DNA of 64,000 nt from Octopus vulgaris (taxonomy: Eukaryota), in contig OX597815.1 of the NCBI GenBank assembly GCA_951406725.2, positions 192,076,001-192,140,000 on the forward strand, written 5' to 3'. The translations under genes and the position numbers were made by a program. The notes under the pieces were generated by a model. That model saw nothing but the letters and a program-made list of their open reading frames with translations. It did no database searches and was not told the DNA's origin. Of the stretch, positions 1,955 through 56,238 are shown piece by piece. How positions within the stretch are numbered: the stretch's first letter is position 1; each line of letters starts with the position of its first letter.

Positions 1955-2090
1955 GAGAGGTTGTCAAACTCTTTGATAGTTATTTATTTTGTGCTTTCAT
2001 CTCGTTTCAGAGATTCATCAGAAATGGTGATTCTCAGAAACAAGATGAAAGAGCTGAATAATTAATTATTCAAAACTCTAACTACCTCCT
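1955..2090. repeat. Degenerate inverted repeat (hairpin element) with GAAA loop at 2021-2024
   Basis: CTTTCATCTCGTTTCAGAGATTCATCA-gaaa-TGGTGATTCTCAGAAACAAGATGAAAG. Weaker complementarity extends out to GAGGTTGT...ACTACCTC. Confidence 0.7.
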
Positions 2091-2601
2091 TTTCCTTAAT
2101 ATATCACAGTTTCACAGTATCAGCCAGACCATCAGATGCTGTTATACACCACTGGTCACAGTGCGTTTTCAATTTTGTCTTGATTCTGCCTTTCTTTTCC
2201 ATCTTGTCCAAGATTGTTTGACTAAATTGTTTTCCCAGTGCTGCTGGACAATACCAGTGCTGCCTGACTTATGCCAGTGCCGCCTGACTGGTTCCCATGC
2301 TGGTGGTACATAAAAAGCACCATTCAAGTGTGGTCAATGCCAGTGCTGCTGATTGGTTCCTGTCCCATAGCACATAAAAAGCACTATTTGAGCATAGTTG
2401 ATGCCAGTTCCGCCTGACTGACTCCGTGCTGATGGCATACAAAATGTACCCACTACACTCTCAGAGTGGTTAGTGTTAGGGAGGGCATCAGATTGGGGCC
2501 TGGTGTAGTCTCCCGGCTTGCCAGTCCTCAGCCAAACCGTTCAACCCATGCCAGCTTGGAAGATGGATGTTAAACAATGATGATGATGATGACTTAAAAT
2601 T

Positions 2602-2920
2602 GTAAAGACCCCCTTCGGTCATAAATGACCATGGGATTGGACCTAGAAAGTTACCCTCCAAGGTACAAGTCTGGGCAAGGTTTTTTTTATGGAACACCCA
2701 GCAGTCACCCATGCATGCCAGTCCCTGCTCTCCATGCCACTGATGTTATCCAAGGGAAAAACAAAGGGGTCGATACAGCTTGGCCCCAGTGATGCTGCAA
2801 CTCATCTCTACAGCTGAGTGAACTGCAACAACCTAAAATGAAGTTTCTTGATTAAGAACACAACACACAGCCCAGTCCGGGAATAGAACTCACTACCTCA
2901 GGATTGTGAGCATAATGCTC
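2602..2920 (-). mobile_element. tRNA-derived SINE (family D, 5'-truncated)
   Basis: Matches the fuller copies at 24108-24448(-) and 56392-56745(+). Confidence 0.8.
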
Positions 2921-3948
2921 TAAATGGATTGGACGATTTGACTGAGGACTGGTGAACCAGATGGTTGCACCAGGCTCCAATCTAATCTGGCAGAGTTTCT
3001 ACAGTTGGATGCCCTTCCTAATGCCAACCACTCTGAGAGTGTAGTGGGTGCTTTTACGTGTATGTGCATGTGTGTTTGTATGTATATATACATGTGTGCA
3101 TTGTTATATATATACACGTGTATTGTTATATATATATACACGTGTACATACATACACACACACACACACATGTGTACATATATGTACACATAGAGGCTTC
3201 TTTCAGTTTCTGTTTAACAAAGGATTTGGTTGGCCTTGTAGAACACCCTAACCCAAGGTTCCATGCATTGGGAGTGAATCTGAGACCACATAGTTCAGAA
3301 GCAAATTCCTTAACCACATAACAATATACACATGTCTGTCTGTCTGTCTATCTATCTAAATGTATGTATGTATGCATCCATCTATCTGTCTGTCTGTCTA
3401 CATATATATATATATATAGATAGATATACATACATACATATGCATACACATACTTCACACACACACACACATAAAGATACATATATACACACATACTATA
3501 TATAGAGATATATAGATATACATAGATACATATGCATACATCCATCCATCCATATGAGAATTGGAAACTCAGAATATTTTGCTTTTTTTGTTAGCTGTTT
3601 GGTAATTTAAGACAGTTTGGAACCCAAGTATGGCGCCTGGGTGTTGAAGTTGAGGCTTACCAAACAATCTGATCTACTTTGTACGTTGAACGGAAAAAAA
3701 AAGGAAAAGGAACCAAAATTGTTGGTTATATGTCCGAAACACTGTAAATGCTAATGTAATGTAGCGCACAAAGCCTTTGGTTCCAAGCCAAAATCTCTGT
3801 CAATTAAGCAAGTCTCATTTCAGTTCTGTGATATAGCGTTAACATGGTAATGCTGGATGTGAAATCTATGCAAGTGAAAATGAATAATGAACTCAAAAGT
3901 AGCGTAAACCTTGCCAATTTGCAATGCATCTTGGTGGCCCTAGATAAA

Positions 3949-3979
<31 letters not shown>

Positions 3980-4225
3980 TGTTGTTTTAGCTGTTGTTCA
4001 GTCATGAGTTGGTCTTCATTGGAGCTGCCAAACGAGCAAAGGAGTTCTGGCCATGACTATCCAGCCTTTCTCAATGTGATTCTCCGTATTATGATTGAGA
4101 TTTGGCTGCTAATTCAAACTGGTCAGTTGAGCTCCTGCATAAATGCTCTCTCATTAGCGCTGACTACTACTACCACTACTACTACTGCTGCTGCCACTGC
4201 CACCCCCAAAACCACCACCACCACC

Positions 4226-4259
<34 letters not shown>

Positions 4260-4497
4260 ACAGCAGCAGTAGTAGTAGCACTAGTTGTTTTTTCTGTCGT
4301 TCAATTCTGACTGGCCTTGATTGAGTTGCCAAAAGAGCAAAGGAATTCCAGCCGTGACCATCCACCCTTTGCTTATGTTGAGGATTTCATTATTCAGTGT
4401 GAGTCTCCATTATATTATGACGAAGATTTGGCTGTTGTTTCTAGTCAGTCAATCAAGCAACTGCCTAGAAAAACCTTCATTAGTGTATATCAAGTAT

Positions 4498-4810
4498 ATG
4501 AAGGTGCATGGCTTAGTGGTTAAGGTTGTTGCTCTCCCAATCATGAGATCGTGATTTCAGTTCTCCGGCCCAGTGGTCCATTGTGTTCTTGAGCAAAACA
4601 CTTACTTTCATGCTGTTATGTGACCATTTCAATATCCCCGATGTGGTACACTTGTATACCTGTACAGGTAATGTCAATTTGATGGATGGAGTGAGCTTAG
4701 ATGCTACACAAAAGATATGATCGCTATAAACAAATCATTTGCATGGCTATTTGACAAGGAATTACAGAGCCCTCAACCATTATTTAACAACAGGAGAGTT
4801 GATAACCACA
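4498..4810 (+). mobile_element. Older tRNA-derived CORE-like SINE
   Basis: Head TGAAGGTGCATGGCTTAGTGGTTAAGG (A box), followed by TTCTTGAGCAAAACACTT (CORE-like). Confidence 0.6.
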
Positions 4811-5050
4811 ACCCTCGATTCAATAACATTGTGTATAAACTCGATACTTGGAATGACCAATTTTTAATACTATTGGATTTTACTCATAAGGTATTGGAAT
4901 CTTATATGTATACCATTCTACCTAAAAAAAATGGATCTACAAATGCAATATCCCTACATATCTCACATCTATTTTCTTTTATTTCCTCAATTTCACGCTC
5001 TATTTTATATCTTATCTAAATTAACTATTATTTAACCATCCTCTCACACC

Positions 5051-5098
5051 GTCTCCAATGAAGGGATATAATAGATATCCTAGAAACAGCTGTAAGAC
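5051..5098 (+). ncRNA. Minimal type-I hammerhead ribozyme motif with mutated core (Penelope-like pLTR remnant)
   Basis: GTCT-CCAATGA-A-GGGATAT-aatag-ATATCCT-A-GAAAC-agct-GTA-AGAC. Stem I is GTCT/AGAC, stem II is 7 bp, stem III is the palindrome ACAGCTGT. CUGAUGA is changed to CCAAUGA. The module ends at (TA)n around 5163. Confidence 0.75.
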
Positions 5099-5486
5099 CT
5101 ATCTATAAATGTTCTAAAATTTACACAACCTTGGTTTTTTTATCTCATTACGAAAAAAATTTATATATATATATAGTATGCCTGATTGGCACCTGTGCCA
5201 GTGGAACATTAAGATAGCAATTTAAATGTAATAGAATGTTTAAGAAAAAATTTAAAGTGCCTACGTGATAACTGTAAACCTACTTTTGGGTCACCCTATA
5301 TATATATATATATATATATATACGTTTAAATATTGGCTAAACTGGCAATATGACCATTCCGAAATATAACAATATATATATATATATAGTTATTTAAAAT
5401 TGAATAAGGGTAGAAATTGATATTAATCATTTAAAACCAGTGGCCTAACATATTAAAAAAATCCGAAGATTAAAATATTTTATACT

Positions 5487-5660
5487 TACAAAATTTAAAG
5501 GACTGACCACAAAAAATGGACAGTCAATATGCTAGATATAGACGTCAAAATCGCTATGTTTTTTCTTGAGAACACATTCTTCATGGAAAATAGCGATTTT
5601 GACGTCTATATCTAGCATATTGACTGTCCGTTTTTAGTGGTCAGTCCTTTAAATTTTGTA
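5487..5660. repeat. Hairpin element: 71-bp inverted arms, 32-nt loop, in (TA)n context
   Basis: 5487-5557 is the reverse complement of 5590-5660 with about 2 mismatches. Confidence 0.9.
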
Positions 5661-5747
5661 TGTATATAGTTATGTATATAAATATGTATATATATATATA
5701 TATATATTTGTATACACATACACACACACATATGTATATGCACTCAT

Positions 5748-5784
<37 letters not shown>

Positions 5785-6028
5785 AGTGGTCTGGCTCATT
5801 GCTTCTTGTTGACCTCTCAGCTAAATTTGAACTCTCAAGCACCCAGTTTGACGAACCACCATCCGTAAACTTCCAACACCTTGCTGACTGACTGTTTAAC
5901 CACATTAACAAATTTGGCCAGTGTTACGATAACGGTGGGGTGGGAGTGTAGCGGGACGAGGGGGGGATTATGAAAGAGGGTATGGGTGGTAGGGGTGGGG
6001 ATGGTGTGTGTGTGAGGATTCTATCCAG

Positions 6029-6294
6029 ATGATTACAATGCAGTACCGCACTGCATTGTACCGAGTGGCACAGACCAAGACAGAAGCTGCCGTTTCCACT
6101 GGAGGCAGTTTAGATCAAGCCTGTCTGCGTACCTTGATGAACTCAGCGCAGTACAAGTTATAGCACGGTACAGAACCGTAAACTCAGCTCCTGCGCTCAG
6201 AACAATGGAAGAAGGCAGAACCGCTAAAACGGAGAGGGTGGAGAGCAGAGTGCGGTTGGTTGGACGTGGCGGTGGCGGTGGTACTGGTGCTGGG
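6029..6294. other. Unique non-repetitive island; candidate exon (strand unresolved)
   Basis: On +: CCAG|AT at 6029, an 88-codon open frame (DYNAVPHCIVPSGTDQDRSCRFHW...GGGGTGAG), then GGG|GTAAGA at 6295. On -: a long U-rich tract ending CTTACCCCAG| near 6290, then an open frame to a stop at 6033. No recognisable domain. Confidence 0.3.
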
Positions 6295-6769
6295 GTAAGA
6301 ACAAACAGAAAAACAAACAAACAAACAAACAAACGTGCAAACAAACGGACAGACATGAATACAAGAGACTCAGCTTTATGAAAGATAAGTCGGTGCGTGT
6401 TATACACAAGAGAAAAAAGTTCCATCCAGCTAATGTTTAACATTCAGCGAGTGTGTATGGTGGGGGGATGGAGAGCAAATGCCCAAAACAAAAAGAACTT
6501 CACATTGTGAGGAATTTTTTCCCATGACAAAAGTATAGAAGTATGTGTTTGGTGTTTGTTTGGATGGTAGGTATAATTAGGAATCTCTGCATTATTTTAT
6601 GCAACTAACCGATTTTTTTGTTTGTGTGTGTGTGATTGCGTTAGCTTCTTGTGAATGCTTTAATTTCTTTTGTGTGTGCGCTCGCTGCAAAAATGTATGC
6701 GTGTGTGAGTGTGTGTGGATGTGTGTATACAGATACATTTTTGCAACTAGCCTGTCCCCCCCCACATAC

Positions 6770-8044
6770 ATGCACATTAATGTACACACACATACACACA
6801 CTCACACACAGACATACACATACAAACATATACACACAAACACACTCATACACATACACACACACTCAAACACACAGAAAATCACACACACATATAGACA
6901 AATACAGACACTCACACACACACACACACACAAGCACACTTACACACTGATACACACATGCACACTCACACATACACACATACACACACACATATCCACA
7001 TGCATAATTTCTACAGCCAGTGCACACACATATGTACACACACTGACACACACATACACATCCACATGCATTATTTCTACCGCCAGTGCAGGCACACATT
7101 TATATGCACACACACATTTATATGCACACACATGCACACATACATTATTTCTACAGCCAGTGCATGCACACACACGCATCCACATACATTATTTCTGTAG
7201 CCAGTGCACACACACACATTTACATGCACACACACACACACACACACACGCGCGCAGATCCTAAGGGGAACAGTGTTCCCTCATGTACTCCCCAACCCCC
7301 ATCCCTAGTATGATTGCACTCATTTACTTGCTCATAAGGTCAGGCAGAGCTCCTTATGGAACAAACTCTCAAAAAAGGGAGTTTCTTCTTCTGTCTTTCT
7401 TTCTCTCCCTAACCCCTTTTTTCTTTTTCAAGGCTTCAATAACATAAATTTTTAGTCAAATAATATTAAATTAACCAAAAGAAAAACAAAAAAAAAAAAA
7501 AAGAAACCGAAAAAACATCATACAAACAAAACAAAGGAAAACCAACAAACAAACAAAAAAAAACAAGATTTTCTTTGTAACATTTTGTTTGTTGTTGATG
7601 TTTATGATGTTGTTGTTGTTGTTGTTGTTGTTTTCCAAATTTCTTTGTCTTATCTTTGTGATTCTTCTCCATCTTCTCCCATCCTTTCCTCCTCTTTGCC
7701 TGCTCTTTTGTCTTGCATTTGTGATTCTTTAAATGAGATTATTGCATCTGCTGTGGTTTCCCCGTCACTCTCTCTCTCCCCCTCTCTCTTTCTCTCTCTC
7801 TCTCCTCTCTCTCCCCTTCTCTCTCTCTCTCCTCTCTCTCCCCTTCTCTCTCTCTCTCTCTCCTTCTTACTCTCAGTCTATCTCTCCTCACCACTTTGTC
7901 TGTCTGTCTGTTTTCTTTTTCTCTCTCTCTTTCTCAGCTGATCTCTCTTCCAACCATTTTGTCTGTCTGTCTGTCTGTCTGTCGCCTTTCTCTCTCTCTC
8001 TCCTCCCAGTCTATCTCTTTTCCCACCACTTTGTCTGTCTGTCA

Positions 8045-8084
<40 letters not shown>

Positions 8085-8505
8085 TCAGTATCTCTCTTTC
8101 CCTCAGTCTATCTCTCTCCCTACTACTTTGTCTGTTTTCTCTCCCTCTCTCTTTCTCAACTGATCTCTATTCCAACCATTTTGTCTGTCTGTCTGTCTGA
8201 CACCTTTCTCTCTCTCTCTCTCTCTCTCTCTCCTCCCAGTCTATCTCTCTTCCCACCACTTTGTCTGTCTGTCAGTTCTATCTCTCTTTCCCTCAGTATC
8301 TCTCTCTCTCTATCTATCTATCTCTCTTTCCCTCAGTCTATCTCTCTCCCTACTACTTCGTCTGTTCTCTCTCCCTCTCTCTTTCTCAACTGATCTCTAT
8401 TCCAATCATTTTGTCTGTCTGTCTGTCTGTATCTCTCTCCCTCCTTCCAGTCTGTCTTTCTTCCCACTACTTTGTCTGTCTGTCTGTTTTCTATCTATCT
8501 ATCTG

Positions 8506-8556
<51 letters not shown>

Positions 8557-8979
8557 GTCTCTTTCTCTCTGTCTACTTCTCTTATTTATTCCCTCTGTCT
8601 GTCTGTCTATCCATATAAAAGCTCACTGCCATGAGCCAATAAGGGAGCCACCATGTCGTTGCTCAACTTATTACTAGAAATAGTAGCCAAACTCTCCCTC
8701 ACATCCTACCATCTTAAATAAATAATAAGGATAACAAGGGACACAATACTACATGCAGAGGTCAAAGCAAAAAAAAAATGCATGGTTGTATATAGAATGC
8801 CTTTGATCAGAGAGACCTGCTACATCAAAGCTGACCTGGGGTTAAATGACAACAACAACAACAACTGTATTTCCTTCATTATAGGTAAAACAAAATCAAG
8901 GTGGGTTTGGATCTAAAGTTGCAAATTATGTAAATAATCATCACCACTATCATCGTCATGGTGACCATCATCATGCTGT

Positions 8980-9011
<32 letters not shown>

Positions 9012-9965
9012 CCATCGTCACCATCTCCATCATCATCATCACCATCATCACCATCATCATCACCATCATCATCATCATCACTATCACCATTTTCATTATT
9101 TATTCTCCTCCTCCTCATCATCATCATGGTTGCCATCGTCATCATAATCATCATCATCACTATCACCATTGTCATATTTATCCTCCTCCTCCTCCTCATC
9201 ATCATCATTATTGCCATCGTCATCATAATCATCATCATCATCACTATCACTATTGTCGTATTTATCCTCCTCCACCTCTTCCTCCGCCTCCTCCTCCTCA
9301 TCATCATCATCACTACCACACCACCTGCATCGTCATCATCATCATCAGCAGCAGCAGCAGCAAGGAAAAGCAATAAGAATACATTTTATATTTTGTTCTG
9401 TATCATATTTTCCCCACCCACCCCCACCCTAAGATGAACCAGTAAGGGAACCTCTGTGTGTTCACTCTCACTGCTAGACATAGCAACCAAATCTCTGTTA
9501 GTTCATACTGTGTCCGCTTTTAAAAAAACAAAAAGGAAATGGAAGAAAAACAAAAAAAACAAGCATGACATATCAGGACTAAGTCACCCTAGATATACAA
9601 AACAGACAGGGTGGTTATGACCGGAACCCCTTCGGATTATAGGTGTGTTCAACCTTGTTTGACCAGGGGCAAAACAACAATCACCTCAAAAATGATAAGA
9701 ACATGAGGAGAAAACAATTATGTTTTTTTTTATAGAAACTCTATTTTATGAAATAATTGAACTAGAAACAAAAGAAGACGGTTGACAAGAACACTGAGAA
9801 TAATATGAAACCCTGAGGGAAGCTAAATGGAGTGGCTTAACATGCAGCTAGAAATAGCAGTCAGAAGATTTTTCTTCCAATCTATTTGTCTGTCTGTCTG
9901 TATGTATGTATGTATGTATTTATGTCTATCTACCTGTATATCTATCTACCTGTATATCTATCTAC

Positions 9966-10017
<52 letters not shown>

Positions 10018-10160
10018 ATACGTCTGTCTGTCTGTCTATCTGTCTGTCTATCTTTCTATCTGTCTGTCTAAGTCTGTGTGTGTGTGTGTCTGTCTATCTA
10101 TCTATCTATCTATCTATCTGTCTGTCTGTCTGTCTATCTATCGATCTGTCGATCTGTCGC

Positions 10161-10219
<59 letters not shown>

Positions 10220-10601
10220 GTCTGTCTGTCTATCTTTCTGTCTGTCTATCTTTCTATCTGTCTGTCTGTCTATCTTTCTGTCTGTCTATCTTTCTATCTG
10301 TCTGTCTGTCGATCTGTCTGTCTGTCTATCTTTCTATCTGTCTATCTTTCTATCTATCTATCAATATAAGTCTGTCTGTCTACTTGTCTATCTATCTGTC
10401 TGTCTGTCTATCTATTTGTGTGTGTGTGTGTATGTATGTATGTGTGTCTGTCTGTCAGTCAATCTCTCTGTGTATCTGTCTCTCCACATATATAAATACA
10501 GCAAACATAAGCATTACATACATACATATACACATACATATACACACACATATATACATATGCATCAACAGGCATACACACATGTATATATAAACAGACA
10601 G

Positions 10602-10637
<36 letters not shown>

Positions 10638-12334
10638 TCATCTATATGTATATGATAATTCCTTGACTTGTATTCTGCTAGTTAGGATGGCTATTTCCTT
10701 TATCTGTAGAATATATCTTGAGAATATCTTTCAATTTACTTTTTTACCTTTCCTGCTCTCTGTACGAAGAACACCAGAGGCGGAGGAGGGGGGGGGGGGA
10801 GATGTCGATTATTGGGAAAATTTAGTGGGTTGGAGGCAGGGGGTAGGAGAGGGTGGTAGTGGTGGTGGGGGGAACAATGAATCTTACCTTATTATCTTAG
10901 AAAAAGGTAAAAAAAAAAAAACCAAAACAAACAAAAAAAAAAGAAAAAGAAAGGAATGGAGATATACAGGAGTTAATGTAAGTCTTAGACACATTGTGTC
11001 TGAAGGAAAAGATGGGATGGGCACACCTGGAGTGTCTTTGAGCAATCTGTTCAATGAAGGAGTTATGCTATGATAGTAAAAACAACAACAAAACAACAAC
11101 CTTGAATAACTAAAAAGGAGACAGGATAAAGAGAGAGTGAGAGAGAGTGAGAGTGAGAGAGAGAGACAGTGAGAGAGAGTGAGAGTGAGAGAGAGAGACA
11201 GTGAGAGAGAGTGAGAGAGAGAGCGAGAGAGAGAGAGAAAACTATGTATTCTCTGTCTACATCTCTGTGTGTTTGTCAGTGTGTGTGTTAGTGTGTAAGT
11301 GTTAGCGTGTATGTGTGTGTCTTAGTGTGTGGGTGTCAGTGCGTGGGTTTTAAGAAATGTATCTTTGTGGATGTGTGTGTTAGTGTATGTGCATGAATGT
11401 GTGTGTGTATGTTAGTGTGTGTGAGTATGTGTGTTAGTGTATACGTGTATGTGTGACTCTCTGGGTGTGTATATGTGCATTTATATATGTGTGTGCATGA
11501 ATGTGTGTGTGTATGTTGTGTGTGTGAGTATGTGTGTTAGTGTATACGTGTATGTGTGACTCTCTGGGTGTGTATATGTGCATTTATATATGTGTGTGTG
11601 TGTGTGTATGTTAGTGTGTGTGAGTATGTGTGTTAGTGTATACGTGTATGTGTGACTCTCTGGGTGTGTATATGTGCATTTATATATGTGTGTGCATGAA
11701 TGTGTGTGTGTATGTTAGTGTGTGTGTGTTAGTGTATATGTGTATGTGTGACTTTCTGGGTGTGTATATGTGCATTTATATATATGTGTGTGTGTGTACC
11801 TCTATCATTGAACCGTCCCAGTAGTAGCTGGATTAGGTGTAAGGATGTAAATGGGTTAGCTCCCCCTGACTTCATTGTAGTTGTAGTTGTGGTGGTGGTG
11901 GTGGTGGTGGTGGTGGTGGCGGTGGTGGTTTAATTACTTCAACAATAATCCGAGAGAATGAAAAGAGGGGGAGGAGGCATTTCCAGTAGGAAATGAATCT
12001 TCACCACCGCCACCATCACCACTGCCACCACCGCCACTATCTCTGCTGCTATTCCCTACTCCCCAAAGCCCATCCAACCCCACCCCACCCCAGCCCTGCC
12101 CTGCCATTCACCAAATTTCCCCCCAGTCTCATCATCACCCACCGCCTCCTGTTCTCTTCCTAATGTGAGCAGGAAAAGTGAAGAGAAATTTTGAAAGATA
12201 TTCTTTAAGTATATTAATATATTGCACAGATGAAGGAAATGGCCATCATATCTATCAGAATATAAGCTATCAGATATATATATATATATATATATACATA
12301 CATAGATACATACATACATACATACATACATAAA

Positions 12335-21099: not shown

Positions 21100-21900
21100 G
21101 GATCTTTTCGGTTTGAACGGCAGTTTTTAACATAATTTCTAGGCGCGGGAGTGGCTGTGTGGTAAGTAGCTTGCTAACCAACCACATGGTTCCGGGTTCA
21201 GTCCCACTGAGTGGCATCTTGGGCAAGTGTCTTCTACTATAGCTCCGGGCCGACCAATGCCTTGTGAGTGGATTTGGTAGACGGAAACTGAAAGAAGCCT
21301 GTCGTATATATGTATATATATGTATGTGTGTGTGTTTGTGTGTGTGTGTTTGTCCTCCTAGCATTGCTTGACAACCGATGCTGGTGTGTTTACGTCCCCG
21401 TAGGCGGTTCGGCAAAAGAGACTGATAGAATAAGTACTGGGCTTACAAAGAATAAGTCCTGGGGTCGATTTGCTCAACTAAAGGCGGTACTCCAGCATGG
21501 CCGCAGTCAAATGACTGAAACAAGTAAAAGAGTAAAATAGAGTAAAGAGTAACTAAACACTTTTAAACTTCGTATACTGGTAGAATGTGTTTATAAAACA
21601 TCTTTTTCTCTTGGCTTTATTGAGAAAATTCTATAATTTTAAAAATATTTGTTGTTTTTTTTCTTCAATTTCTGCAATTTCAACCAATCAATGACATCTA
21701 TTGAGGTGAAAACATTCTTTGCCGTATGAATATGTCCCTCGTTTAAGAAATAGATTGGGTTTATTTACATTTGTAAAGAAAAAAAGATACCCTTCCCCCC
21801 CTAACCCTAAAAGAGATTGAAATGCAATAGGGTTATAATTATGGGAGGCAATTTCATATGACACTGCTAGAAAAAACTGCCGTTCAAACCGAAAAGATCT
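21100..21900. mobile_element. MITE family M1 (TIR GGATCTTTTCGGTTTGAACGGCAGTTTTT), interrupted by a SINE
   Basis: TIRs at 21100-21128 and about 21872-21900. The interior is the reverse complement of 40945-41364. Confidence 0.85.
21142..21549 (+). mobile_element. tRNA-derived CORE-type SINE (family B), full length
   Basis: A box GTGGCTGTGTGGTAAG, B box GGTTCAGTCCC, CORE-like CTTGGGCAAGTGTCTT, (GTAAAAGA)n tail. Other copies or fragments at 14860-15145, 15455-15560, 19678-19900, 24495-24660, 35270-35415, 44335-44478, 59672-60000, 60665-61150. Confidence 0.9.
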
Positions 21901-21917: not shown

Positions 21918-22439
21918 GGCATTCTTTCGATATAACTCGACAAAATGAAAACAGTTCATTTCGGGTATTTCCGTGGGTTGTGGAGTATAGATGTAACGAA
22001 ATTATGCCAGCAATGTCTCATTTTAAACTTGAAGAAAAAAAAGCCTTGCATATTTGTTCTTACCTGTTTCATGTGTGTATGTAAAATCCGCATCATCATC
22101 ATCATCGTTTAACATCCGTTTTCCATGGTAGCATGGGTCGGACGGTTCGATCGGCGTCTGGGAAGCCAGGAGGCTGCACCAAGCTCCAGTCTGATCTGGT
22201 AGTGTTTCTACAGCTGGGTGCCCTTCCTAACGCCAACCACTCTGTGAGAGTAGTGGGTGCTTTTTATGTGCCACCGGCACAGGTGCCAGGGGAGGCTGGC
22301 AATGGCCACGATCGGTTGGTGCTTTTTACGTGCCACCGGTACGGAAGCCAGTAAAATCAGAATCAAACTGTCATTTGCTTCCACGGAAATACCCCAAGCG
22401 AAATGCTTTGATTTTGTCGAGTTATATCGAAAGAATGCC
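21918..22439. mobile_element. MITE family M2 (about 60-bp TIRs, GG ends, 8-bp TSD) containing a family A SINE
   Basis: GGCATTCTTTCGATATAACTCGACAAAAT...GGGTATTTCCGTGG, with its inverse at 22381-22439. TSD GTTCTTTC at 21910-21917 and 22440-22447. Confidence 0.85.
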
Positions 22440-40944: not shown

Positions 40945-41364
40945 GGATCTTTTCGGTTTGAACGGCAGTTTTTTCTAGCGGTGTCATATGAAATTGTCAC
41001 CCATAATTATGACCCTAGTATCGATCTATTGCATTTCAATCTCTTTTAGGGTTAGGGTTTGGTTTAGTGGGGGAAGGGTATCTTTTTTTCTCCACAAATG
41101 TAAATAAACCCAATCTGTTTCTTAAACGAGGGACATATCCATACGGCACAGAATGTTTTCACCTGAATAGACGTCATTGATTGGTTGAAATTGCTGAAAT
41201 TGAAGAAAAAAAACAACAAATATCTTACAAACTATAGAATTTTCTCAATAAAGCCAAGAGAAAAAGATGTTTTATAAAACACATTCTACCAGTATACGAA
41301 GTTTAAAAGTGTTTAGTTATGTGGAAATTATCTTAAAAAACTGCCGTTCAAACCGAAAAGATCC
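40945..41364. mobile_element. MITE family M1, intact 420 bp, nested in a SINE (40797-41545)
   Basis: TIRs of about 30 bp (GGATC...GATCC). 8-bp TSD TTAATATT at 40937-40944 and 41365-41372. Internal TTAGGGTTAGGG. Confidence 0.9.
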
Positions 41365-41657: not shown

Positions 41658-42075
41658 AAGGCAGTGAGCTGGCAGAAATGTTAGCACACTGGGTGAAATG
41701 CTTAGCAGTAGTTCGTCTGTCTTTATGTTCTGAGTTCAAATTCTGCTGAGGTCAACTTTGCCTTTTATCCTTTCGGGGTTGATAAATTAAGTACTAGTTG
41801 TGTACTGGGGTTGATCTAATCAACTGGCTCCCTCCCCCAAAATTTCAGGGGTCGATTAAATAAGTACTAGTTGTGTATTAGGGTCGATCTAATCAACTGG
41901 CTCCCTCCCCAAAAATTTCGGGGTCGATTAAATAAGTACTAGTTGTGTACTGGGGTTGATCTAATCAACTGGCTCCCTCCCCCAAAATTTCGGGGTCGAT
42001 TAAATAAAGTACTAGTTGTGTACAGTGGTCGATCTAATCAACTGGCTCCCTCCCACAAAATTTCGGGGTCGATTT
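41658..42075 (+). mobile_element. Family C-type SINE with 4 tandem copies of a 72-73-bp 3' segment
   Basis: CAACTGGCTCCCTCC recurs at 41821, 41894, 41966 and 42039. Confidence 0.85.
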
Positions 42076-42178: not shown

Positions 42179-42617
42179 CCCTTTCGTTACCAACCTACCT
42201 GAAACCAGCTCTGGCTCTGTAGGTCTTGTTTTCATAAGTTTTGAATTAAAATCTTCCACCAAACCTTAGTCACAATTTATGTCCTTAACACTAGCTGAAT
42301 GATAACTAAGTTATTTTACTAAAATTAATTGAAAGAAACACAAAACATCTCAACAGAAATATGGTAAGAAAAGGGCTAACAAATGATTAATTTAACCCAT
42401 TTGGTACCAGCCAGGCTGAAACCGGCTCTGGCTCTGTAGTACAAATATCTTGTTTTCTAAAGTTCTGAATTAAAATCTTCCACCAAACCTCAGTCACAAT
42501 TTATATTCCTAACACCAGTTTAATGATAACTAAGTTATTTTACTAAATTCTTTGTTATATTTAAAATTAATTGAAAGAAACACAGAGAATCTCAAAATGA
42601 TTACAGTAACGAAAGGG
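42179..42617. mobile_element. Two adjacent piggyBac-like MITEs (42179-42375 and 42396-42617)
   Basis: TTAA-CCC...GGG-TTAA termini and shared interiors. Confidence 0.8.
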
Positions 42618-42853
42618 TTAAATCACATTATTAGGACAAATTGTTAGGACACATTATTAGGACAAATTGTTAGGACACATTATTAGGACAAATTTGAAAA
42701 CTGACACTCTATCGGTTATGACGACAAGGGTTCCAGCTGATCTGTTAAACAGAACAGCCTGCTTGTGAAATTAACATGCAAGTGGCTGAGTACTCCTCAG
42801 ACATATGTACACTTAAAGAAGTTCTCAGAGAGATTCAGTGTGACACAGAATGT

Positions 42854-43307
42854 GGTACTACTTAAGAAGAGTGGTCCCGGTGCGCGTACTCGCGCATCTG
42901 CGCTAGCTAGTCATGGCTAGTCGATCCTACAACTACCTAGCAAAGTAAATAAAACAGAAAATAAATTTTTTTTTACACAAAAAAAATATTGTAAATTTTA
43001 ATCAAATTGTGAAGTGACCAATGTTGATTTAAACTTCTGGACAGCAAAATATAAATCTGATTTGAGGAAATAATCTCTTATTTACTTATTTATTGATGTA
43101 ACAAATTTAGATGTATGTGTGTGTGTGTGTATGTATGTATATATATATATGTGTGTGTGTGTACGTATCTTGCGTATATATGCATCTAATTTTTTTAAAG
43201 CAAAATAAATAAAACACAAAAACACAAAGTAAGGATTGACTAGTCACGACTAGCTAGCGCGGATGCGCGAGTGCGCGCACCGGGACCACTCTTTTTAAAG
43301 TAGTACC
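42854..43307. mobile_element. MITE family M3 (GC-rich TIRs of about 75 bp, GG ends, 8-bp TSD), nested in a SINE (42703-43452, -)
   Basis: GGTACTACTTAAGAAGAGTGGTCCCGGTGCGCG... and its inverse. TSD CAGAATGT at 42846-42853 and 43308-43315. Confidence 0.9.
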
Positions 43308-45105
43308 CAGAATGTGACAAGGCTGGCCCTTCACAATTCAGGTACTATTCATGTTTGCCAGATGGGTGGACAGGAACAATGTGAAATAAAGTGTCATGTA
43401 CTGCCAGAAATTGAACCCATGACCTTACTATCATGAGCTACATACCCTAACCACTAAGTCATGTACCTTCACATATGACATATTTTAAATACTAATAAAA
43501 GTTTATGACTAGGTTACGATGTTAATGACTCGATCACTATGTAAATAGACAGGTCACAATGTTAATAAACCGGTCACATGTTAATAGCCAAGTTACATTG
43601 TTAATGGACGGGTCATAATCTTAATAAATCAATAGAGATATTGATGAACAAGTCTAAGTTTTAATCGTTTGTTTAATTGCCCATTATTATGGTCGCTTAC
43701 AGAAGCAAAACTACGAAGCTCAGAGGATTTAAACAATAGTGTTAATGTTAATACAATTAAAGTGATATCGTTAAATACTGTGACAAAGGAGCCTTTATGT
43801 AGATGCTCAAACTGCTAGAAATAATAGCCAATAGATAGCGGTTTTTGGTTCATCATCATCATCATCATCATCTTTTAAAATCCACTTTCCATGCTGGCAC
43901 AGGGTTAGACGGTTTGACTGAAGACTGACAAGCCAGGAGGCTGCACCAGGCTCTGATCTAATCTAGCAAGGTTCCTACAGTTGGATGCCCTTCCTAACAT
44001 TGACCACTCCAAGAGCATAGTGGGAGATTTTTATGTGCCACTGGCATAGTGGTCAGTCAGGCAGTACTTGCATTGACCATGTTTGAATGGTGCTTTTTAC
44101 ATGCCACCAGCACAGGGGCCAGTTAAAGCAGTATCGGCATTGGCCATGACAATGATTTCACTTCAACGATGAAGTCGATTATATCGACCCCAGTGCGTAA
44201 CTGATACTTATTTAATCGACCCCGAAAGGATGAAAGGCAAAGTTGACCCCGGCAGAATTTGAACTCAAAACTCAGACGAAATTCTGCTAAGCATTTCGCC
44301 TGGTGTGCTAACGTTTCTGCTGGCTCGCCGCCCTCTTTCAGTTTCTGTCTACCAAATCCACTCACAAGGCTTTGGTTGCCCAGACCCTATAGTAGAAGAC
44401 ACTTGCCCGAGGTGCCATGCAGTGGGACTGAACCTGGAACCATGTGGTTGGGAAGCCACACAGCCATACCTGCACCTATGACCTAACTGCAATAAACAAT
44501 TTTTAATGACATAATTTTTGATTATTTAAGAGGGGAAAAATAATGTTCTTGACTCAGAAATAAAACCTCTAAAAGGAAAAACATTTAGAAAAGTAATCAT
44601 GCAATGTAAAGATTTAGAATTCATAGATTTTAGCAAAATAGGCTGGTCAGTCGCATAATTAATCAAACAGAGTGTTTCTTCTGATAATGTGGCTAAAATT
44701 TTAATCAAATCGTGAAGTGACCAATGTTGATTTAAACTTCTGGACAGCAAAATATAAATCTGATTTGAGGAAATAATCTCTTATTTACTTATTTATTGAT
44801 GTAACAAATTTAGATGTATGTGTGTGTGTATGTATGTGTATATATATATGTGTGTGCGTGTATGTGTGTGTGTGTGTGTCTGTGTGTCTGTGTACATATC
44901 TAGCGTATATATGCATCTACCTGCCTGTCTATCTATCTATCTATCTATCAATCTAGGTGTGTGCATATGTGTGTGTGTGTATGTATGTAGATATTACATC
45001 ATCATCACCGTTTAACGTCTGCTTTCCATGCTAGCATGGTTAGACGATTTGACTGAGGTCTGGCAAACCAGATGGCTGCACCAGACTCCAATTTGATCTA
45101 GCTGA

Positions 45106-46414: not shown

Positions 46415-47144
46415 TTCACACAGATGTATAAGAATATATATTTATATGCATACACACATACATATATGTCTATATACACACAAACACACCATGTATATAC
46501 ATGTATGCACACATACACACACACACACACATGTATATATATGTGTGTACGTATAGGTATGCGTCAAAGATTCAAAAGAATAATATTTCAATTCTATCAT
46601 CATAAGTGCAATAGTTAAGAGCTTATATAGAAATTTGGTTGAAATTTTGGTGAAAGATTAAATTGAGAACTTTCAGAACTAAGTAAATATTTAAAAACAA
46701 AATAAAAACAAAACAACAAAACAACCTATGCAGCCACATTAAAGATATAGGTTAATACATCAACAACATATCCATGTATATATATATATGCACTTGAGTA
46801 TGTTTGCTAATATACATACATGTATAAAAATAGATGTGTGCATGTATGTGTGTTTGCATGTGTAAATGTTTGGGAACAGGCAAGACATAAAACATATCAC
46901 CAACATATATAGTTGTAAGTCTTACATGCTTAAATGATTTGTATGTATTGATTACATGTATTATTTTTGCTTAAAAGACATATCATATTTAATATTGCAT
47001 CTCTTGATGGCAAATATTAAGGATATTAACCCTATTTTTTTTGTGTCATCATCATCATCATCATCATCATGAGGATGACACACACAAAAAAAAAAAAGAT
47101 GAAAGTGGGGGAGGTAAGTTGATTACATCAACCCCTGTGTTTAA

Positions 47145-47365
47145 CCCTTTCGATAACAACCCGGCTGAAACCGGCTCTGGATTTGAGTACAAATTTCTTG
47201 TTTTCATAAGTTTTGAATTAAAATCTTTCACCAAACCTTAGTCACAATTTGTGTTCCTAACACCAGCTTAATGATAACCAAGTTATCTTACTAAATTCTT
47301 TGTTATATTTAAAATTAATTGAAAGACACACAGAGCATCTCAAAATAAATACAGTAATGAAAGGG
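47145..47365. mobile_element. piggyBac-like MITE
   Basis: TTAA-CCCTTTCG...GAAAGGG-TTAA. Homologous to 42396-42617. Confidence 0.85.
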
Positions 47366-47819
47366 TTAACTGGTACTTAATTTATTGACCATGGGAGGCT
47401 AGAGGACAAAATCAACCTCGGTGCTATTTGAACTCAGAACGTACAGATCCAGAAATAATGGAGAGATGGGCTTACTTCATCACAGTGATCCCTGTGGTCG
47501 ACTGGTAATTATTTTGTGAACCCTGGAAGAAAGAAAAGCAAAGCTAACCTTGGAAGAGTTTGAACTCTGGCAGGGGTCGTGGTGAACCCTGCTGTACTCC
47601 CTCACCACAGTTCTCACTCAGTCTTTCTTCATGTTTCTGTTGTACCTGTATTTCAAAAGGCCAGCCTTGTCACACTCTATGTTATGCTGAATCTCCCTGA
47701 GAACTACGTTAAGGGTACACATGTCTGTGCAGTGCTCAGCCACTTGCACGCTAATTTCACGAGCAGGCTGTTCCGTTGATTGGATCAACTGGAACCCTCA
47801 TCATCATAACTGACAGAGT

Positions 47820-49567: not shown

Positions 49568-49954
49568 GGAGGCGCAATGGCCCAGTGGTTAGGGCAGCGG
49601 ACTCGCGGTCATAGGATCGCGGTTTCGATTCCCAGACCGGGCGTTGTGAGTGTTTATTGAGCGAAAACACCTAAAAAGCTCCACGAGGCTCCGGCAGGGA
49701 TGGTGGTGATCCCTGCTGTACTCTTTCACCACAACTTTCTCTCACTCTTACTTCCTGTTTCTGTTGTACCTGTATTTCAAAGGGCTGGCCTTGTCACTCT
49801 CTGTGTCATGCTGAATATCCTCGAGAACTGCGTTAAGGGTACACGTGTCTGTGGAGTGCTCAGCCACTTACACGTTAATTTCACGAGCAGGCTGTTCCGT
49901 TGATCGGATCAACCGGAACCCTTATCGTCGTAACCGACGAAGTGCTTCCATTCC
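49568..49954 (+). mobile_element. Young tRNA-derived SINE (family E), full length
   Basis: GGAGGCGCAATGGCCCAGTGGTTAGGGCAGCGGACTCGCGGTC..GGTTTCGATTCCC head. CpGs largely retained. Confidence 0.9.
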
Positions 49955-53995: not shown

Positions 53996-55044
53996 ATCTG
54001 TTTATATTCTGAGTTTAAATGCCGCCCTGGTTCACTTTTGTGATTTGCTCAACCGAGGTTGATAAAATAAATTTCAGTATTGCTGTAACACACAATATCA
54101 CAGAAGGTGATGTATTAGTGAGGTCATAGTTTAAAGAATAAAAGAATTAAAGAATAAAAGAATTAAAGAATTACAGACTAAAAGAGATAGTGATGTTGTA
54201 GAATCAAAATTGAAGGATTCACTCTAAGTTCTTTGTGCCACAGTATAAGAATTTAAATGATTGCACAGTTTCGAAGACATTTCTTATTTTTTCTATTTTT
54301 TTTTTTGTCAGAATTTGCTAAATTTGCCATCATGATAATGTGAAGAAATGGCCATTAAGAAAATGGATTTTAATTTGCATAGCGTGATGTAATTTGCATA
54401 CTGGTGTTAGTTTAACAACAATTAGGAATTACTTGTACACCAACAATTATCGCATGGAAAAATGTCAACGAGTAAAAGACAAAATAATAAACAACAGACA
54501 AAATTTGTTATTCCGAAATGTATTGTTTTTAAGCTTCACCATCATCATCATCATCGTTTAACGTCCGTTTTCCATGCTAGCATGGGTTGGACGGTTCAAC
54601 CGGGGTCTGGGAAGCCAGGAGGCTGCACTAGGCCCCAGTCTGATCTGGCAGTTTCTACAGCTGGATGCTCTTCCTAATGCCAACCACTCCGTGAGTGTAG
54701 TGGGTGCTTTTTACGTGCCACTGGCACAGGTGCCAGGTGAGGCTGGCAATGGCCACGATTGGATGGTGCTTTTTATGTGCCTCCGGCACTGGTATCACAA
54801 CTACAATTTCCATTGATTTTTTTTTTTTGATCGATTTTGATTTCGCTTGCCTCAACAGGTCTTCGCAAGCAGAATTTCAAACAAGTAATTTCATTGCGGA
54901 TTGAAAACTTGCAACTATGCCTATAAGTTGTTGGTATAGCCATGGCTGTGTGGTTAGAAGTTTGCTTCCCAACCACATGGTTCTGGGTTCAATTCCACTC
55001 CTTGGAAACTTCAGCAGCTATCGTTTACTGTAGCCTTGAACAGA

Positions 55045-55635
55045 CCAAAGCCTTGTGAATGGATTTGGTAGACAGAAACTGAAAGGAGCCCATCGTGTAT
55101 ACATATCGTTTCTTTTACTTGTTACTGTCATTTGACTGCGGCCATGCTGGAGCACCACCTCTAGTTAAACATTGGGTCAACCAAAGCCTTGTGAATGGAT
55201 TTGGTAGACAGAAACTGAAAGGAGCCCATCGTGTATACATATCGTTTCTTTTACTTGTTAATGTCATTTGACTGCGGCCATGCTGGAGCACCACCTTTAG
55301 TTAAACATTAGGCTAACCAAAGCCTTGTGAGTGGATTTGGTAGACGGAAACTGAAAGGAGTCTATTGTGTATACATATCGTTTCTTTTACTTGTTACTGT
55401 CATTTGACTGCAGCCATGCTGGAGCACCACCTTTAGTTAAACATTGGGCCAACCAAAGCCTTGTGAGTGGATTTGGTAGACGGAAACTGAAAGGAGTCCA
55501 TCGTATATACATATTGTTTCTTTTACTTGTTACTGTCATTTGACTGCAGCCATGCTGGAGCACCACCTTTAGTTAAACATTGGGCCAACCAAAGCCTTGT
55601 GAGTGGATTTGGTAGACGGAAACTGAAAGAAGCCT
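55045..55635. repeat. 136-bp tandem repeat (about 4.3 copies) inside a family B SINE
   Basis: CCAAAGCCTTGTG at 55045, 55181, 55317, 55453 and 55589. Confidence 0.95.
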
Positions 55636-55852
55636 GTTGTATGTTTATATATGTGTGTGTCTTTGTATCTCTATTTGTCCCCCACCCACCATCGCTTGTC
55701 AACCGATGCTGGTGTTTTTACATCCCTGTAACTTTGCAGTTCAGTAAAAGAGACCAAATCTGGCAAAAGAAGCCAAATCTGGCCAGGTGAAACGCAAAAC
55801 AGGTAAAATGTTTTGGCTGGATGTGGCTGGTTTAAATGCTAAAAGGTTAATA

Positions 55853-56238
55853 GGTAGGAAGCACTCTGTCGATTATGACGATGAGGGTTCTGGTTGATCC
55901 GAATCAACGGAACAGCCTGCTCGTGAAATTAATGTGTAAGTGGCTGAGCACTCCATAGACACGTGTACCCTTAACGTAGTTCTCGGGGATATTCAGCGTG
56001 ACACAGAGAGTGACAAGGCCGGCCCTTTGAAATACAGGTACAACAGAAACAGGAAGTAAGAGTGAGAGAAAGTTGTGGTGAAAGAATACAGCAGGGATCA
56101 CCACCATCCCCTGCCGGAGTCTCGTGGAGCTTTAGGTGTTTTCGCTCAATAAACACTCACAACGCCCGGTCTGGGAATCGAAACCGCGATCCTATGACCG
56201 CGAGTCCACTGCCCTAACCACTGGGCCATTGCGCCTCC
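55853..56238 (-). mobile_element. Family E SINE, full length, 13-bp TSD
   Basis: TSD TAAAAGGTTAATA at 55840-55852 and 56239-56251. Close inverse copy of 49568-49954. Confidence 0.9.

Follow-up and report, generated by a model that had tools for sequence, protein, structure and literature searches.

Transposons that hold host DNA between their terminal inverted repeats (TIRs) have been described as Pack-TIRs in animals and as Pack-MULEs in plants. In its consulted parts, the animal survey of Tan et al. 2021 (PMC8277862) reports 370 Pack-TIRs in 100 animal genomes, at a rate of about 2 captures per 10,000 TIR elements. Animal Pack elements most often take their cargo from a few kb away: 160 of the 281 unique cases lie at most 15 kb from their donor, most of them within 5 kb, and 190 show microhomology. 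In primates, outgroups carry the filler-free element in 91 of 97 cases, and the nearby cases are attributed to transposition-independent gap filling. For the Merlin superfamily, the portions of the papers drawn on here list 191 sequences in Octopus bimaculoides (PMC8101967) and 18 families in O. vulgaris, 2 of them recently active (PMC13282606). Our literature search returned nothing on the locus studied here or on cephalopod Pack elements.

Here we describe a 454-bp element in a stretch of 64,000 nucleotides of Octopus vulgaris DNA (the window, to which all coordinates refer). We consider it probable that this is a high-copy, non-coding transposon whose filler was acquired after landing, by template switching during repair of a central break, from a donor 1.4 kb away. 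It would thus offer a clean example of the first pick-up of host DNA by a transposon, and would add a mollusc, and probably the Merlin superfamily, to the known range of animal Pack-TIRs.

The element, its copied interior and the donor

The element occupies positions 42854-43307, begins with GG and ends with CC. Its left TIR (42854-42929, plus strand) and right TIR (43232-43307, minus strand) agree at 69 of 76 columns when the window is compared with itself by BLAST, and the element is flanked by an 8-bp target site duplication, CAGAATGT (42846-42853 and 43308-43315, plus strand). Inside the arms, on the plus strand, lie an A/T-rich left sub-terminal stretch (42930-42992), in which both the minimum-energy and the centroid fold place a short T-run/A-run hairpin, the filler (42993-43188), and a right sub-terminal stretch (43189-43231) that shares a 23-bp direct repeat with the left part (repeat family D20). 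The whole is embedded in an interspersed repeat without assigned strand, recognized by its paralog matches and split by the element (42705-43493, as 42705-42853 and 43308-43493), which we take to be SINE-like. Left and right flanks are matched by the same paralogs in register, and all five insertion-free paralogs checked in the window hold one 8-mer at the insertion point; because these empty sites contain it singly, the target duplication is 8 bp long, as judged from one copy of the element. The single strand of the element has a folding energy of -108.5 kcal/mol (z -14.4 relative to 100 shuffled sequences), and so strong a fold follows from the long arms, which necessarily pair.

A sequence-only reading had described the interior of this TIR-bounded, duplication-flanked element as a direct-orientation copy of 44696-44919, with some 125 bp of near-identical unique sequence running into a microsatellite, and in coordinates, ends and structure our alignments bear this out. 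Positions 42993-43115 and 44696-44818 are identical at 122 of 123 bases, the sole difference being T at 43008 for C at 44711. Next comes a mixed TG/TA microsatellite that is shorter in the filler, so that the totals are 196 bases in the copy and 224 in the donor, and beyond it a 27-base tail contains two mismatches; BLAST within the window scores the pair at 95.4% over 174 columns (E 1e-76). Identity ends sharply at 42993/44696 and at 43188/44919, extending by 0 bases on either side, and the flanks of copy and donor have nothing in common. The six bases AATTTT bracket the filler (42994-42999 and 43188-43193), which is unlikely to be chance because this motif sits at only about 0.1% of nearby positions.

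The donor (44696-44919, plus strand) is unique A/T-rich DNA passing into the TG/TA microsatellite and starts 1,388 bases beyond the end of the element. Apart from the filler, the window contains no strong match to its unique part, the next best reaching E 0.006, and its contig depth is near single-copy. Upstream of it the matches of a neighbouring high-copy repeat end at 44450-44479, and downstream another interspersed repeat starts at about 44997, 77 bases past the donor. Neither element nor donor is overlapped by an open reading frame of at least 100 codons in the window's list, and we accordingly rejected a coding cargo; reading the same list by eye, we noticed no transposase-like frame.

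The neighbourhood is rich in other elements. One of 522 bp (21918-22439) has 59-bp arms with a GG start and a perfect 8-bp duplication, GTTCTTTC, and holds a nested high-copy repeat at about 22091-22352. Another, of 420 bp (40945-41364), has perfect 30-bp arms with a GG start and a perfect 8-bp duplication, TTAATATT; it has an 89%-alike relative at about 21100-21899 and adjoins a further copy of the host repeat that holds the studied element. A 439-bp element at 42179-42617, presumably piggyBac-like, has perfect 12-bp arms with TTAA on both sides and is a head-to-tail dimer of a unit of about 230 bp that also occurs at 47140-47369. The window further contains a 382-bp inverted pair (49568-49949 and 55857-56238; 95% alike, about 6 kb apart), tandem arrays with units of 73 bp (41771-42074) and about 136 bp (55044-55652), and, on the minus strand at 1593-1979, a frame with C2H2-like zinc-finger motifs, the better of whose two matches is an Octopus vulgaris protein (85% over 41% of the query); we assume that this may be the end of a retrotransposon frame.

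Family sequence and filler in public-run contigs

Twenty of the 24 public runs listed hold part of 42700-44814, with a best share of 0.64; they come from samples other than the window's own. Four runs (X1, from organism A; X4, from organism B; X10 and X22) were aligned to 42640-43850 at 85% likeness. X22, a set of raw reads, was dropped, as only 15 of its reads aligned, none of them at least 95% alike and none on the high-copy host repeat. X10 is uninformative on the donor and on the presence of the element at this site: it diverges by about 7% at 43369-43850 and has neither interior depth nor a record reaching the element. A degenerate 20-bp tandem array lies at 43501-43628, and there the diverged X10 carries one more 20-base unit behind 43588.

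Might the interior simply be family sequence, and 44696-44919 an element remnant or a copy of it? Summed contig depth, read here as a qualitative contrast rather than a copy number and with bins 43102-43170 skipped as repeat, is 1.7e5-8.6e5 in the arm bins of X1 and X4, 71-85 in the interior bins and 50-54 in the single-copy flank, so that in both runs arm depth exceeds interior depth by a factor of 2,000-12,000. Loose contig ends before 42854, at least 96 in X1 and at least 141 in X4, agree with their consensus at only 0.38-0.39 and thus represent many unlike flanks, which fixes the start of the family at 42854; the left sub-terminal stretch shares the high depth. Moreover, family copies skip the interior: among the joints listed, 42965 is joined to 43217 with 27 other letters in X1, and 42953 to 43192 and to 43216 in X4. 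The contigs that hold the donor, for their part, run into its local flank under two organism labels. We found no point that supports a normal interior and regard that explanation as hardly credible. On the evidence of contigs, rather than of a built consensus, 42993-43188 is not the normal interior of the family. The sequence-only reading had taken this DNA for host rather than transposon sequence, and had expected it to lie outside the family consensus and to be lacking from other family copies; the near single-copy depth and the skipping joints agree with it on each count.

The same contigs locate the breakpoints. Family-type sequence runs to 42988 in another copy of the family (X1 record 4, aligning to 42890-42988) and resumes by 43190 (X1 record 6, aligning to 43190-43290), so that the breakpoints of the capture fall where the copy begins and ends. 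The break lies in the middle of the element, with 139 bases of it to the left and 119 to the right. Without its filler the element measures 258 bases, compared with 230 for a short family copy in X1, and therefore no large loss of element sequence occurred.

Two further features of the contig data deserve mention. Joints from 427xx-428xx to 43308 were considered as empty orthologous sites and rejected, because identical joints arise from paralogs of the host repeat. Likewise, the interior depth exceeds that of the donor contig by 13-30, and a second copy was rejected as its source: the two-bin ratio is 0.57 in both X1 and X4 and the surplus is absent from the third bin, a recurrence that fits one short unrelated match. 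In both runs some additional sequence, at roughly single-copy depth, matches the filler over about 30-45 bases at approximately 43036-43075, and is possibly a third, partial locus or chance.

Order of events and mechanism

Did the filler arrive with the element or after it? X1 is close to the window: two of its records, of 111 and 98 aligned bases, show 0 differences, and one of 400 aligned bases shows 2. Record 5 of this run (400 bases) is identical to 42993-43101 and continues upstream by 255 bases that do not align; in X4, record 23 (387 bases) shows 2 differences and extends upstream by 251 such bases. Judged by the length of these upstream parts, both contigs would represent the donor locus. 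If they are placed there, their first bases fall on 44441 and 44445, at the edge of the neighbouring high-copy repeat; the donor would thus be present in its local context in organisms A and B. Across the shared stretch the contig shows no branching, and its depth is 1.10 times baseline in X1 and 1.09 times in X4, compared with the 1.18 expected with one extra copy and the 1.36 expected with two.

The element itself seems to be present at this site in X1, where record 7 matches 43298-43395 with 0 differences and includes the last 10 bases of the arm. A further 13 bases of this contig, at 43285-43297, are unaligned, and its allele thus differs in a T/A run; the two arms of the window also differ from each other in this run. 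An element at the site together with an unbranched, near single-copy donor suggests that X1 carries the element without filler, and hence that capture followed insertion, a conclusion drawn from depth and an unbroken contig, which show presence rather than absence. A thinly covered junction between very deep nodes may be lost when contigs are built, and X1 may possibly hold a heterozygous filled copy. A greater age of the element than of its filler was also sought in their substitutions: in the rows listed, the element has at least 5 private changes in 258 bases and the filler has 0 in 109 relative to the X1 donor, which is a trend only and was rejected as a dating (Fisher P 0.33, or 0.07 with both lineages).

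This order bears on the alternative that a nearby copy of the element took up the donor sequence and then made a local, FoSTeST-like hop to its present site. Local hopping is common among DNA transposons, and the target duplication is intact. X1, however, appears to have the element at this site in its filler-free form, and BLAST within the window reveals no other copy of the arms. The multicopy Pack-TIRs in the consulted parts of PMC8277862, moreover, lie far from their donors. We therefore judge capture before or during insertion to be very unlikely.

We envision that the process began with the documented insertion of the element into the host repeat, which duplicated eight bases. At a later time, a break or a stalled fork may have arisen in the A/T-rich middle of the fold-back element. 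The broken end might then have started synthesis on the donor from about 7 shared bases, AAATTTT, a microhomology that depends on our reconstruction of the pre-capture junction; about 200 bases would have been copied, through the microsatellite, before the strand rejoined the element at about 1 base of homology, leaving AATTTT repeated and little or no element sequence lost. Such a process would not need transposase, and the filled element would not have moved since. We favor this scenario because of the depth contrast between arms and interior, the skipping joints, the central break, the lack of a large loss and the donor in its own context. The proposal of the sequence-only reading that template switching filled the element with neighbouring DNA is thus supported as to the filling, and the switching itself stays conditional. 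The geometry fits published cases (PMC8277862 Supplementary Data 1, in the rows consulted), for example row 8, with a 160-bp donor and a 442-bp element about 650 bp apart, row 21, with a 174-bp donor and a 477-bp element about 1.2 kb apart, and row 27.

A break could also have been supplied by transposition itself, if transposase had excised the element and gap repair, templated by the sister or homolog, had strayed to the donor and back. Excision repair would lead to an identical final structure and would likewise imply a filler-free allele; the element appears to be young, with at least 5 differences from the family majority in 258 bases of the rows listed, and the O. vulgaris annotation includes two recently active Merlin families (PMC13282606 Table 1, as far as consulted). 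The expectation for such events in the available text of PMC8277862, however, is of larger deletions and breakpoints near the element ends; in the octopus element the break lies near the middle and hardly any sequence, if any, is missing. Repair after excision is thus an unlikely source of the filler.

Alternatively, a chimeric read or a gap filler might have placed the sequence in the assembled element, perhaps from the donor of the other haplotype. The capture junctions are spanned by no read or contig among the records listed, in 0 of 3 informative runs, which is also what weighs most against the scenario we favor, and the T at 43008 of the filler recurs in the donor-type contig of X1 and could therefore be the other allele. 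Against this, the junctions share only about 7 and about 1 bases with the donor flanks, and an overlap-based assembly join needs more shared sequence than that; copy and donor differ by three substitutions as well as in microsatellite length, and the window contains no N. An assembly artefact is accordingly quite improbable. Returning to repair-driven capture after landing, a bolder proposal, to which we would give somewhat less than even credence, is that the same Merlin-like insertion segregates with and without filler within one octopus species, as a before-and-after pair that would fix both breakpoints and order, and that such fold-back elements may be hot spots of local templated insertion in cephalopods.

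Comparison with Merlin and Pack elements

To which superfamily might the element belong? By its structural marks it is likely to be a candidate Merlin-type element: the termini read 5'-GG, the target site duplication of 8 bp, known from one copy, falls within the 8 or 9 bp of Merlin, and the 76-bp TIRs lie within the range of 24-462 bp. Terminal GG, 8-bp duplication, arm length and internal direct repeats are shared with the non-autonomous Merlin elements in the consulted parts of PMC8101967. A Merlin assignment further calls for a partner element with the same arms that encodes a DDE_Tnp_IS1595 transposase; neither a transposase nor an autonomous partner was seen in the window. A Mutator-like origin is possible. 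The arm motifs were not found as termini in the supplementary sequences consulted from PMC8101967 and PMC13282606, and they had 0 matches in metagenome contigs, viral contigs and prokaryote genomes; the repeat library of PMC13282606 may already contain the family.

The kind of event is already known from hundreds of published animal cases, and what is new is the mollusc host, the Merlin-like element and the possible polymorphism. A specialist would not be surprised, given the published rate per TIR element (PMC8277862, consulted parts) and a cargo of non-coding DNA and microsatellite. The value of the locus would lie in its youth and possible polymorphism, which would make it a test case for whether insertion or capture came first.

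Plant Pack-MULEs, as portrayed in the introduction of PMC8277862, likewise hold host DNA between transposon arms, and gap filling has been proposed for them. They are often multicopy, carry gene fragments and have donors on other chromosomes, whereas the octopus element seems to exist as one copy, has a non-genic cargo and continues to lie next to its donor.

The closest likeness is to the single-copy, nearby-donor Pack-TIRs of animals (PMC8277862, in its consulted parts). Both termini of one TIR element surround the insert. The insert lies outside the family consensus, as read from depth contrast and skipping joints, and its parental match is unique within the window; with 196 bp, 95.4% identity and a length ratio of 0.875, it falls within the survey's bounds of 100-5,000 bp, at least 90% and 0.8-1.2. 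The survey's 100-bp flank filter guards against segmental duplication; with a repeat 77 bases past the donor, the locus fails it if any repeat counts and passes if only TIR elements do, as the sentence that follows the filter in the source implies. The present case differs from that set in its octopus-lineage mollusc host, since the survey was made without octopus and gives 0 cases among 9 annotated elements for the sea hare, and in its superfamily, "Merlin" occurring only as a column head in the consulted content of the 12 supplement files. Shared features are a non-transposon insert of 100-5,000 bases in a short TIR element with a donor less than 15 kb away, and a central breakpoint with little loss and short microhomology. 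As in the published cases, a filler-free element is suggested at the orthologous site, here in X1, and unlike in those cases, the filler-free allele may lie within the same species.
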